In this document: positions 39,859 to 43,116 of the stretch, piece by piece
How the letters are laid out: every line of letters starts with the position of its first letter
Position numbering within the stretch: the first letter of the stretch is position 1
From: Massalongia carnosa
Taxonomy: Eukaryota
Assembly (NCBI GenBank): GCA_965645245.1
Contig: OZ287072.1
Location: 434,001 to 498,000, forward strand
Length of the DNA stretch: 64,000 bases
Direction of reading: 5' to 3'
Made by a program: the position numbers and the translations under genes
The notes under the pieces: generated by a model
Database searches by the model: none
What the model saw: only the letters and a program-made list of their open reading frames with translations
What the model was told of the DNA's origin: nothing

Positions 39859-40901
39859 TTATCTTCTCTCCCCTCCCCCTCCCCCTTGACCTCCAAATGG
39901 ACCCCCCATCCCCATGGGAACCCCCATCCCCAAACCCATCCCCCCAGGTGGTGCGAACGGCCCCCCTGGCTGCGGAGGACCCATCCCTTGCCCTTGTGGG
40001 GGTGGCGGGAACCCTCCTGGTGGCATACGAAAATCGGCGGGAGGGAAGGGAAGCGGGGGCATGCTACCGTTTGCGGGGGGGAATGGGGGAAATGGCATGC
40101 CGCGGCCGGGAAGGGGTGCTATGGTGGGAAGGTGGTATTAGCGTGTGATAAGAATCCAGGTATAGAGAAGTCATCCATAAGGGACATAATGGACAAGGTG
40201 TGCATGGGAAAGGTAAAGAGGAAGCTTAGCCTACGAGGGAGAAAGCCGCCAGGACCTGGGTTTGGGGGACCGCCTGGTAGGCCGAAGGGAGGTGGGGGGA
40301 GGCCGCCTAGGTTAGAGATGAGATCAACATTCATTTGGGTCATCTTGAGTTGACAGGCACAATCACAAGCTTAAGGTTAGGATCATGGTATGAAGGAGCA
40401 AAAAACGTACCCGGAAAGCCAAACGGCGGAGGGGGAAACGGCTGTCCACCGCTGCCGCCGCCATGGGGGGCAAGCATAGGGTTTGCGCCAGGTTGACCTT
40501 CGGCTGCATATGAAGAGGTGATAGAATCGATGACAGACTGGGCTTTTTCGTGACCGATTTCTATGTGGAGAAATCCGTGCAGAAGCTATCAGTTATCTCG
40601 TTCCTTAAAGAAACCCACAGAGAGTTTTTGGTGGAAAAGACGTAGGGGATTGCGGACTTTGATAGTAATCGAGGACATTTCGCTCGTGATTCCGGCCGCT
40701 ATTGTGAGCTTTACGGACACTCATGGAGTCATGCGTGAGGTAGACATCACAGTAATCGCCTTTCAAGAAGGGAAAGAAGCGGAGGGCATTAGCGTTTAGG
40801 CTTGCTTGTGTGAGTAACAGGGCGGGACCTACAGAAGAGTGCTGGTCGGTCAGTCTGATGAGCGCGAGTTTTGTGAGGTGGGAAGACTTATATTTGGGCA
40901 T
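39859..40901 (-). CDS. YHC1: U1 small nuclear ribonucleoprotein C (U1-C; SNRPC/Yhc1), 6 exons including a 6-nt microexon
   Basis: Matrin-type zinc finger [25 protein letters not shown], then [21 protein letters not shown] and a Pro/Gly/Met-rich tail. First exons: 40901-40892, 40838-40833, 40759-40658, then from 40560. Confidence 0.95.
40839..40891 (-). other. 53-nt AT-AC spliceosomal intron (intron 1 of U1-C) with U2-type signals
   Basis: Minus strand ATGCCCAAAT|ataagt...actgac...cagcac|TCTTCT|gtaggt. Removing it restores the family N-terminus MPKFFCDYCD exactly. Confidence 0.8.
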
Positions 40902-41202
40902 CTTGTCGGAGCTCCCAAGAGCTCCTACTGTACGTGTCTAGGCAGGCAATTCTGAGTTGATTTGTTTCGAAGCAAGAGCAGAAATATTCTTTACACGATA
41001 CAGATACTCTATAGTAGGTAACTAACCCTATTCTACGCTAAGAGTGCAAGCGAGTATCTACTCCGTAGCGTGGATTTCAGTTTACTTCTTAGAATCGTAT
41101 TTATGGAGCTCATGAGTATCTATTTTCACCTAACGCGATTAAAAGGACAGCGCCCCTACACCAGGATTCCTACAAGTGGACGACAACGTATTGAATCTAT
41201 AC

Positions 41203-43116
41203 TCAACTTCTGTGCCTACTCCAAGCCTTCTGGGCAGCGCTAGACATCGGCCGGTAAGGTTCAATACCATATTCCCTATTCCTCGGGGGTCGTTCATGGG
41301 GCAGAGGGGGTTCGTAGTTACTGGATTTCCCATATGTCCCTCGAAAGGGGTAATGTGGCGAGACGGATCGGCGATCGCTCAGTCGATAGCCATATTGGCC
41401 CTGATCACGAATACTTGAGTATTCCCTACCCCGGCGGGCATCCCAGTATCCCTCTTCCTGAGACCCTCTTTTGCCCTCATCTTGATGTGGTTCGTTGATT
41501 GGTGTCAACAAGCCCGGCTGGTTTTTGCGCAAGTTTTGGTCGGCTATTCGAATTTGACCTTTGCGCAATTGCCTAGAAATTTTGGGACGGAAGAAGTTGG
41601 CCTTGTCATTATCACTATCGTCTGGCTCAACCGGCCTTTGCCGTTGAGCTCGACCTTTGATCATAATTCCACGTGGCGATTCGGTGGTAGATTCATAGTT
41701 GCCAGACAAGGACCATGTGCTGGTGCCCATCGGTTTTCCGGGCCTTCGAGTCGAGCAATCGTTACCTAGATGACCAGTTTTACCACATTCATAGCATCCC
41801 AGTTGAATAGCTTTCGCAAGCAAGCAGGACAACCAAGGGCGTCCAGACGTCCGCCATAAAATTTCGCAGTCGTCTTCAACATGACCAACGCGTTGACACC
41901 AATCGCACGTTATTTCTGACGTTGTAACAACGAGCTTATGAGGACAATCTAATGATTGATGGCCAAGCTCTCGGCATCGCCTGCACCTTTTGGCTTGCGC
42001 ACATTGACGGGTGAAATGATCGTTGTGTTTTCCACAGGTAGCGCAGTTTAAGCTCTCACACGTATCCGCAAGATGGCCCTCTCCAGCACACACCAAACAT
42101 TTAACTAGTTTATTGCGGTCCAGATTTTCAATACCAGTTGTCGGATAAAAATATCTTAGCTGAAGATTGAGCTCATCAGCATTGAGATCAGCTAAAACTC
42201 GTTGCTGATGCTCTCGAGAATTAAGATCCATGCCAAATGCCCCGGTGCTATCTACAGCTTGGGCTGGTTGACCTGATCGGGAGTATCTCATCATGGCATC
42301 CTCGTCTTCTGAATTACTTCGAGTTATTATGATGATTGATCCTCTATCCGTATCGGAATCCTGAACATTAGCTTCGGTAATTTCACCACTCTCTTGCCCG
42401 CTGCTTTGCAGATTTAGCACAACACCACCATCACTCTCAGAGTCCCCTTCGAACGGCGAACCATTTTTATTTAAGCTAGAGACCAATTCTGCTTGAACGA
42501 ATTTGGTTTCCGAGTTGAAGGCCGATATGCTGCTTTGAATTACATTTTCCGACTTGGCTACAACTGTTTCTGAACCATGAACTATAGATTCTTTGTTCTC
42601 AAGAGCTGAATCCAAAGTACCAGATAGTGTCAACGGAGGTTCTTCGAGCTGTAGAGGTTGATTAGATCGATGGTTCTGCGCTGCCGCCTGTATACTGGCT
42701 TGATCCAAAACTGATTCATCACTATTGGCCCGTCTCGGACCTCTTCCCAATGAAATTCGAATCTTTGCCTTGCTTCCAGAGTTCCAGTTGATGGATGGTG
42801 CTGCCCCTGCTTCATCTCTGTTGCAGGAATGTTCCGTGGGAATTGTCTCTTCCTGTTGGCCGGTGCAAGTGGAGTCCTTCTCGGTTTCCTTTATGTGACT
42901 CTGGCTTGATGTTACCAGGACTGGTTCAGTGACGTTAAACAAAACAGGGACTGGACTGTTGTCACGACCAGCTTCCCCATGTCTGATGCGCTTGCGCGAT
43001 GCTAAGTTGAATGGGTCGAGGTGGCCATTGCCACCAGGGGAGATAATTTCAGGTTCTCGTTTGCGGCCCCTAGATGCTATAGGGGAGCCGGGTTCCTCCT
43101 GCATATTAACATTCAT
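41203..43116 (-). CDS. Zinc-knuckle protein Air1/Air2-like (TRAMP complex, ZCCHC7 family)
   Basis: QLRYF followed by five CCHC knuckles (CLVC..GH...C, CATC..H....C, CRRC..GH...C, CDWC..GH...C, CYEC..GH...C), with the ILWR linker between knuckles 4 and 5. Confidence 0.88.
   Translation of the reverse strand: MNVNMQEEPGSPIASRGRKREPEIISPGGNGHLDPFNLASRKRIRHGEAGRDNSPVPVLFNVTEPVLVTSSQSHIKETEKDSTCTGQQEETIPTEHSCNRDEAGAAPSINWNSGSKAKIRISLGRGPRRANSDESVLDQASIQAAAQNHRSNQPLQLEEPPLTLSGTLDSALENKESIVHGSETVVAKSENVIQSSISAFNSETKFVQAELVSSLNKNGSPFEGDSESDGGVVLNLQSSGQESGEITEANVQDSDTDRGSIIIITRSNSEDEDAMMRYSRSGQPAQAVDSTGAFGMDLNSREHQQRVLADLNADELNLQLRYFYPTTGIENLDRNKLVKCLVCAGEGHLADTCESLNCATCGKHNDHFTRQCAQAKRCRRCRELGHQSLDCPHKLVVTTSEITCDWCQRVGHVEDDCEILWRTSGRPWLSCLLAKAIQLGCYECGKTGHLGNDCSTRRPGKPMGTSTWSLSGNYESTTESPRGIMIKGRAQRQRPVEPDDSDNDKANFFRPKISRQLRKGQIRIADQNLRKNQPGLLTPINEPHQDEGKRGSQEEGYWDARRGREYSSIRDQGQYGYRLSDRRSVSPHYPFRGTYGKSSNYEPPLPHERPPRNREYGIEPYRPMSSAAQKAWSRHRS

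Follow-up and report, generated by a model that had tools for sequence, protein, structure and literature searches.

A putative U2-type AT-AC intron, shared by relatives in three classes of fungi, at the start of the U1-C gene of Massalongia carnosa

Introduction

The gene for the spliceosomal protein U1-C of Massalongia carnosa lies in a stretch of 64,000 nucleotides (nt) of the GenBank assembly GCA_965645245.1 (contig OZ287072.1, positions 434,001 to 498,000 of the forward strand), which is referred to here as the window and is numbered from its first letter. The first intron of this gene appears to begin with AT and to end with AC, which raises the questions of whether such an intron is real, which spliceosome would remove it, and why it would have been kept. 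An earlier note on the same DNA had proposed a U2-type AT-AC intron at this site and had suggested that its donor could act as an autoregulatory sensor. The analysis presented here indicates that intron 1 is very likely a true AT-AC intron which the major (U2-type) spliceosome removes constitutively, and that it is an old one, probably maintained by an epistatic trap.

Few kinds of intron are as rare as U2-type AT-AC introns. In the portions available of the papers cited here and below by PMC number, 15 such introns are given for human, 6 for mouse and 3 for fly (PMC1557818), and AT-AC introns of any kind account for 0.03% of the introns in fungal gene models (PMC4084796). As far as the accessible text of PMC1557818 goes, fungal U2-type AT-AC introns have only been "hypothesised", in xylanase genes. 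The same source summarizes the rescue of a first-base change from G to A by a last-base change from G to C, in both yeast and human, and the compensation elsewhere in the donor that accompanies GC-AG and other non-GT introns. Searches of the full-text literature outside subscription journals and supplements turned up no account of such an intron in the U1-C gene of any fungus.

Layout of the 5' end of the gene

On the minus strand, positions 40901-40759 consist of a start codon with 7 further nt, a 53-nt AT-AC intron, a 6-nt exon, a 73-nt GT-AG intron and the zinc-finger exon, exactly as the earlier note had laid them out, and the joined reading gives MPKFFCDYCD..., the universal start of U1-C. 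Exon 1 (40892..40901, minus strand; ATGCCCAAAT) ends with T in phase 1, and its ATG is the first after an in-frame stop. Intron 1 (40839..40891, minus strand; ATAAGT...CAGCAC) has its donor ATAAGT at 40891-40886 and its acceptor CAC at 40841-40839, and a branch-site motif ACTGAC can be read from the sequence at 40849..40854 (minus strand), with the branch A at 40850, 11 nt before the 3' junction. It is followed by exon 2 (40833..40838, minus strand), a microexon of 6 nt, TCTTCT, which supplies the last two bases of Phe4, the whole of Phe5 and the first base of Cys6. Intron 2 (40760..40832, minus strand; GTAGGT...AAG) has the donor GTAGGT at 40832-40827 and a candidate branch motif GCTAAT at 40793-40788. 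Exon 3 (40658..40759, minus strand) encodes the U1-C zinc finger; it is up to 100% identical to U1-C proteins of lichen-forming Lecanoromycetes, which points to that class as the probable origin of the window, and all listed protein matches carry the Pfam family PF06220 (zf-U1). The spliced model has the features of U1-C / Yhc1, namely an N-terminal C2H2-type zinc finger and the start MPK[FY][FY]CDYC, with Cys6 restored.

The rarity of AT-AC introns alone speaks for a more trivial explanation, in which the unusual ends come from an error in sequencing or assembly, from a pseudogene in decay or from an intron of the U12 type. Confirmation of bases 40891 and 40839 in raw genomic reads had been proposed, and contigs of four public DNA runs, from three samples and two studies, match positions 40769-41100 with 0 differing letters and 0 gaps; three of the four runs come from a single study and may be the source of the window, and the fourth belongs to another study, with another organism label and a depth of 8.2. 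Because these contigs from two studies show no difference, both bases (A at 40891, C at 40839) are genuine and not assembly errors. The reading as a pseudogene is opposed by a gene that is intact at 199 amino acids (aa), and both it and the reading as an error are opposed by the presence of the same state in the 36 distinct sequences described below; the U12-type intron is considered with the splice signals.

Intron ends in related loci

Metagenome contigs were scanned with an alignment of read-through U1-C proteins, and the best 80 of 310 confirmed matches were kept. The start region could be parsed in 79 of the 80 (L060 lacks it), which together with the window makes 80 sequences. Reduced to distinct sequences, the set holds 36 of the AT-AC form (window included) and 15 of the GT-AG form, of which 12 have intron 2; these counts are not counts of independent events. 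The motif ATGCCNAAR followed by T is present in 79 of the 80 related loci, mostly preceded by CAAG or CAAC.

The AT-AC intron with the microexon and intron 2 occurs in 49 of all sequences (36 distinct), which means that the layout of the window recurs in 48 of the 79 parsed relatives, beyond what chance would give. At the identical position, 21 sequences (15 distinct) have a GT-AG intron, 18 of them with the microexon and intron 2 and three without intron 2. Nine sequences (four distinct) have no intron at the intron-1 position, and a single one (one distinct) has intron 2 only. Mixed ends, AT-AG or GT-AC, were found in none of the sequences, all or distinct, so that the 70 sequences with an intron at this position divide into 49 with AT-AC and 21 with GT-AG ends. 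An alignment across relatives had been put forward as a test, and its outcome is that the ends are either conserved as AT-AC or covary to GT-AG. Together with the motifs described below, this covariation also bears out the claim that the first-base change from G to A and the last-base change from G to C are matched changes in an intron of the U2 type.

A tree was built on 162 coding columns from 50 rows, with duplicates merged and 11 loci without a recognisable exon 4 omitted. It is poorly resolved: the AT label needs eight changes on the free tree, and the well-supported branches force one. Searches by tblastn with named U1-C proteins were uninformative for the taxonomic placement of the 80 loci, as the proline-rich tails gave meaningless summed scores.

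Splice signals and intron class

The donors of the 36 distinct AT-AC introns all begin with AT and continue with A in 35 and G in one at +3, with A in 31, G in three and T in two at +4, and with G at +5 and T at +6 in every case, positions +2 to +6 reading TAAGT in 31 of the 36. The Lys codon before the donor is AAA in 36/36, which provides the consensus A at -2, compared with AAG in 3 of 12 GT-AG sequences. The donor of the window, ATAAGT, fits the U2-type consensus except at +1, and /ATAAGT is itself the consensus of metazoan U2-type AT-AC introns (PMC5029451). A motif RCTRAY is present in all 36 introns, with its A 11-13 nt from the 3' junction, and a similar geometry, with the A at 11-14 nt, is found in 10 of the 15 distinct GT-AG orthologues, the simple rule used possibly mis-assigning the other five. 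The AT-AC introns are 49-56 nt long, and the base preceding the terminal AC is always a pyrimidine (C in 23, T in 13), as it is before AG. The microexon occurs as TCTTCT, TCTTTT, TTTTTT or TTTTCT, all changes falling at the synonymous third positions of both Phe codons, a pattern from which the microexon is judged to be coding. At position -4 of intron 1, a G is found in 25 of the 36 AT-AC sequences (giving GCAC or GTAC), compared with an A in nine of 12 GT-AG orthologues.

U12-type introns that also have AT and AC ends resemble intron 1 in the terminal dinucleotides alone. Their donor is /ATATCCTT, and the donors at this site, across the 36 distinct sequences, are of the AGT and not the TCC kind at +4 to +6. 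The U12-type branch site has a TCCTTAAC-like consensus, from which the motifs found here (ACTGAC, GCTAAC or ACTAAC, of the fungal CTRAY type) depart. In the text available of PMC2846911, U12 splicing is reported missing from Ascomycota/Pezizomycotina. Intron 1 is therefore, as judged from its motifs, a U2-type (type II) AT-AC intron, agreeing with that class in every feature that can be tested and failing those of the U12 type; an error, a dying pseudogene or a U12-type intron is, taken together, an exceedingly improbable account of the locus.

In the mechanism proposed here, the donor AAT|ATAAGT would be recognised by U1 and U6 through its otherwise perfect match at +2 to +6, and the branch A of ACTGAC would act 11 nt from the 3' end. 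The usual G-G pair of the second step would be replaced by a partnership of the A at the first intron position with the C at the last. An ordinary GT-AG intron would then start six bases further on, leaving exon 2 as a 6-nt microexon, and removal of both introns would yield the universal U1-C N-terminus MPKFFC.

Canonical alternatives

Splicing at this site could in principle be canonical, using another first exon, the CAG three bases upstream of the AC or a join that gives MPKYKC, in which case the AT-AC ends would be an artefact of forced homology. Several features of the window lend themselves to such a reading: a CAG does stand 3 nt ahead of the AC, a solution of the form MPKY[KM]C is possible in 8 of the 36 distinct AT-AC sequences, and the unspliced frame of 81 codons (40659-40901, minus strand) is open from the start codon through both introns into the zinc-finger exon. 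That unspliced reading replaces Cys6, a zinc ligand, with Gly, and the frame through both introns is open in only 3/36 distinct AT-AC sequences.

All one- and two-intron solutions with GT or GC donors and AG acceptors were scanned exhaustively in the 36 distinct AT-AC sequences, and no canonical solution common to all of them was found. In 14 of the 36 there is none that keeps Cys6, and two of these 14 have no in-frame canonical solution whatever. The earlier statement that the GT near the start gives no in-frame join thus holds in substance, as no canonical solution is shared. Since only 6/36 have a YAG three bases 5' of the AC, the CAG of the window is not a conserved acceptor, in agreement with the assignment of the acceptor to the AC. 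A combination of one AT-AC and one GT-AG intron yields MPKFFC in 36/36, and an AT donor paired with an AG acceptor is known to fail in the second step (PMC1557818, in the part available). Canonical splicing is accordingly considered very improbable.

Three further resolutions were tried and rejected. Nested, stwintron-like introns were worked through by hand, and no order of canonical excision creates a GT donor or keeps the frame. The GT at +5/+6, taken as a donor, is out of frame, and the bases downstream of it are unconserved. Skipping the 6 nt by means of one AT...AG intron would remove two aromatic residues that are universally conserved, and changes within these 6 nt are synonymous only.

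Distribution among fungi

Proteins called as open reading frames (ORFs) on unspliced contigs read MPKYK[SY]...[QILMV]HSSVG...GDYCD, and the ends of the intron can be recovered from such translations: a Tyr at residue 4 means an A as the first intron base, and a His or Tyr before SS(VG) means a C or T as the last, with G excluded. The window itself illustrates the origin of these proteins, since ORF callers report MPKYK... products because its unspliced frame stays open through both introns. Among named models whose lineages were looked up, the AT-AC signature is found in Lambiella (Lecanoromycetes), in Rhizodiscina and Saccharata (Dothideomycetes) and in Polytolypa (Eurotiomycetes, Onygenales). 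It is also present in Aureobasidium melanogenum, A. namibiae, an Aureobasidium sp., Aspergillus terreus and a Penicillium species, the classes of the Aureobasidium, Aspergillus and Penicillium models being those to which we take these genera to belong. At the DNA level, the AT-AC form is seen in a Penicillium-like locus, L077, with 91% identity to the protein P0258 over exon 4.

Other lineages differ. Chaetomium tenue (Sordariomycetes) has the GT-AG signature MPKCK...VFCDYCD; in Lachnellula (Leotiomycetes), Fusarium, Epichloe and Metarhizium, intron 2 comes directly after MPKFFC and intron 1 is absent (MPKFFCK/E.. in the first three); and an Exophiala-like locus has lost introns 1-3. Read in this way, the AT-AC form spans Lecanoromycetes, Eurotiomycetes and Dothideomycetes, and Sordariomycetes and Leotiomycetes have GT-AG ends or no intron. 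Given the relationship of Dothideomycetes, Eurotiomycetes and Lecanoromycetes, the simplest history would be one change from G to A together with one from G to C in the ancestor of these three classes, followed by retention.

Possible traces of the spliced product

Within the AT-AC classes, named models with the correct start MPKFFCDYCD exist for Aspergillus luchuensis, A. novofumigatus, Penicillium coprophilum, Aureobasidium pullulans and others. Of these, the A. pullulans model (P0211) has a sequence of 187 aa that is listed in identical form from Logan assemblies; this exact sequence would be hard to obtain from intron-bearing genomic DNA. Several Aureobasidium species carry intron 1, and models starting at Met18 run uninterrupted to the stop, so that Aureobasidium seems to be without the later U1-C introns. 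When the spliced proteins were compared with the AT-AC loci, no near-identical match was found.

One of the metagenome loci, L056, is a complete record of 1030 nt with a protein that matches Aureobasidium and a leader of 12 nt ahead of the start codon. In it, AAAT runs straight into TCTTCT; the record retains a 56-nt intron 2 and is then open to the stop except for one frameshift. The record is either a partly spliced transcript from which the AT-AC intron went first or genomic DNA from which intron 1 has been lost. Two other loci, L068 and L071, each hold a whole U1-C coding sequence that has a short leader and no introns and resembles Sordariomycete proteins; their cDNA-like form suggests that the metagenome collection also contains transcript assemblies.

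Maintenance of the AT-AC ends

The persistence of the AT-AC state can be explained by epistasis between the two ends. Reverting one end alone, to GT-AC or to AT-AG, would leave the second step blocked, and the other donor positions would have been tuned to compensate for the A at +1. The double change would thus be trapped because either single reversion fails in the second step, and its persistence requires no function.

Certain observations weigh against a genuine, trapped, U2-type AT-AC intron. No RNA run was found among the public runs that match this DNA, so that the junctions 40892>40838 and 40833>40759 are predicted ones. L056, for its part, may come from the genome of a lineage in which intron 1 has disappeared. 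A single origin of the AT-AC form is allowed by the tree and not demonstrated by it, and the taxonomic mapping consists of protein models read back to codons and of metagenome contigs without names. A scan with Rfam, made on the window alone, gave 0 hits. Finally, a pure trap would leave unaccounted for the intron 2 donor, which is GTAG(G/A) in every one of the 36 distinct AT-AC sequences and in 0/12 GT-AG sequences, where it reads GTAAG, GTGAG, GTATG, GTCCG or GTAAT.

This last difference belongs to an explanation in which the AT-AC ends were selected as a compatibility lock. A 6-nt exon would be too small for its own definition and easily skipped; an A at donor 1 would complete splicing only with a C-acceptor, the G at donor 2 needs a G-acceptor, and the join that skips the exon, AT-AG, would be blocked, so that the incompatible ends would force inclusion of the two Phe codons. 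Such selection could coexist with the trap. It would fit the retention of both introns and the microexon in all 49 AT-AC sequences, as well as the fact that skipping would be in frame in 36/36 AT-AC and 12/12 GT-AG distinct sequences, giving MPK-CDYCD. Models of exactly this kind, MPKCDYCD, in which the predictor has skipped the exon, are found in the GT-AG lineages Rutstroemia, Golovinomyces, Colletotrichum, Trichoderma and Parascedosporium. The 12 distinct GT-AG relatives, on the other side, retain the microexon without the AT-AC device, and the association may reflect one ancestral event, the counts being confounded by shared ancestry. Selection for exon inclusion is therefore regarded as conceivable but rather unlikely.

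A corollary of the lock is that the microexon together with the first four bases of intron 2, TCTTYT-GTAG, resembles a pyrimidine tract followed by YAG and may serve as an early surrogate signal for the 3' site of intron 1. L056, if it is a transcript, has intron 1 removed with intron 2 still present, which fits a role for an intact GTAG. No precedent for a surrogate AG of this kind was found, and none is known to the authors. The combined scenario, in which the lock acts with a surrogate signal from the microexon and GTAG, the AT-AC intron goes first and a dependence on U1-C level is possibly added, appears unlikely from the sequences at hand. If the lock did operate, it would represent a new way for terminal dinucleotides to control exon choice inside one spliceosome.

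The suggestion of the earlier note was that intron 1, by virtue of the A at +1, senses the level of U1-C or of U1 snRNP (small nuclear ribonucleoprotein), with U1-C output feeding back on its own splicing. The donor is indeed mismatched to U1 at -1 and +1, within the stretch from -2 to +3 that is contacted by U1-C, and U1-C is reported to stabilise sites with a mismatch at either position and to raise their affinity (PMC4383343, in the part available). The AT-AC state is also deeply conserved, and in 35 of the 36 distinct sequences retention of intron 1 would bring in a premature stop, so that an unproductive isoform is possible. Each of these points has a counterweight: almost any short intron, if retained, should give such a stop, the two-mutation trap already accounts for the conservation, and, because U1-C stabilises mismatched sites, more U1-C would give more productive splicing, so that the sign of the loop would be positive and not homeostatic.

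The idea of a suboptimal donor was itself not supported. The donor is compensated and not weak, with every free position optimised (G at +5, T at +6 and the AAA codon invariant, TAAGT predominant), and neither a conserved regulatory element nor a deliberately weak site was found among the 36 distinct AT-AC sequences, in which no intronic element beyond the splice signals is conserved. In addition, Sordariomycetes, Leotiomycetes and Exophiala-like lineages do with GT-AG or no intron. A precedent for regulation among U1 snRNP proteins exists in the cross-regulation of U1C and U1-70K within the U1 snRNP of human cells (PMC3798272, in the portion available), which is alike in linking the expression of a U1 snRNP protein to splicing. 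It differs in that human U1C controls an alternative exon of U1-70K, and in the present case an alternative isoform, a response or a regulatory element would be hypothetical. The sensor is considered quite improbable as an explanation of intron 1.

Comparison with known systems

Epistatic trapping of a U2-type AT-AC intron would place the U1-C case beside a small number of described introns. Those of the vertebrate sodium-channel genes SCN4A/SCN5A and of TAF2 share with it the AT and AC ends, the strong /ATAAGT donor and conservation across distant orthologues (PMC1557818, PMC5029451, in the portions available). Unlike them, the U1-C intron is fungal, only 49-56 nt long, located in a core spliceosomal gene and separated by 6 nt from the next intron, and its sister clade has GT-AG at the same site. 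The engineered yeast actin intron (Parker and Siliciano 1993, as described in the accessible text of PMC5029451 and PMC1557818) involves the same mutually suppressing end changes acting at the second step; in contrast to it, the U1-C pair arose in nature, has become fixed and has been retained by three fungal classes at least.

Mutually exclusive exons can be enforced by incompatible U2- and U12-type splice sites. The lock considered above would follow the same logic of site incompatibility, with the difference that both introns would use one spliceosome and that the incompatibility would lie in the first and last bases only.

Intron 1 is, on its sequence, a new member, with deep conservation, of the U2-type AT-AC introns already known, and some deposited gene models already contain it implicitly. 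It stands out by the depth of its conservation, by belonging to a core gene of the spliceosome, by the 6-nt exon next to it and by the GT-AG counterpart that sister classes have kept intact. It would constitute a natural, long-lived counterpart of the experiment on first-base and last-base suppression, with the ancestral-type GT-AG intron preserved at the same site in sister classes. The AT-AC form is present in the genetically tractable Aspergillus, Penicillium and Aureobasidium, in which swaps of the intron ends are easy to make.

Gene models, the remainder of the gene and its neighbour

The AT-AC intron explains many faulty U1-C gene models. Among named models from the AT-AC classes, at least 31 show an incorrect N-terminus or a fusion with the upstream gene and at least 10 are correct, figures whose ratio is not a rate, as the listings were ranked by queries favouring one kind or the other. 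Examples of wrong or fused models are those of Lecanora helva (934 aa), of Lepraria neglecta (1361 aa) and of several Penicillium species (about 625 aa).

The complete U1-C model of the window has six exons, encodes 199 aa and ends in ...GGERR, and the four introns other than intron 1 are all GT-AG. Beyond exon 3 it continues on the minus strand with intron 3 (40657-40561), exon 4 (40560-40411), which holds a conserved 17-residue motif also present in relatives, intron 4 (40410-40307), exon 5 (40306-40235), intron 5 (40234-40119) and exon 6 (40118-39859, stop included). The donor of intron 3, GTCCGC (40652-40657, minus strand), is a poor match to the usual fungal donor.

The upstream neighbour of U1-C is an AIR1/2-like zinc-knuckle gene, likewise on the minus strand (41203-41400 and upstream). 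It ends with the TGA at 41205-41203, and 301 nt separate it from the start codon of U1-C. Deposited models of Lecanora helva, Lepraria neglecta, Wetmoreana and a Lecanoromycetidae species fuse the two genes, probably because predictors miss the AT-AC intron and the microexon. In Eurotiales the same annotation failure is seen in Penicillium spp., where the models P0073, P0110, P0113, P0115, P0143 and P0153 (about 590-635 aa) have an unrelated upstream protein joined to the zinc finger at ...GDYCD.

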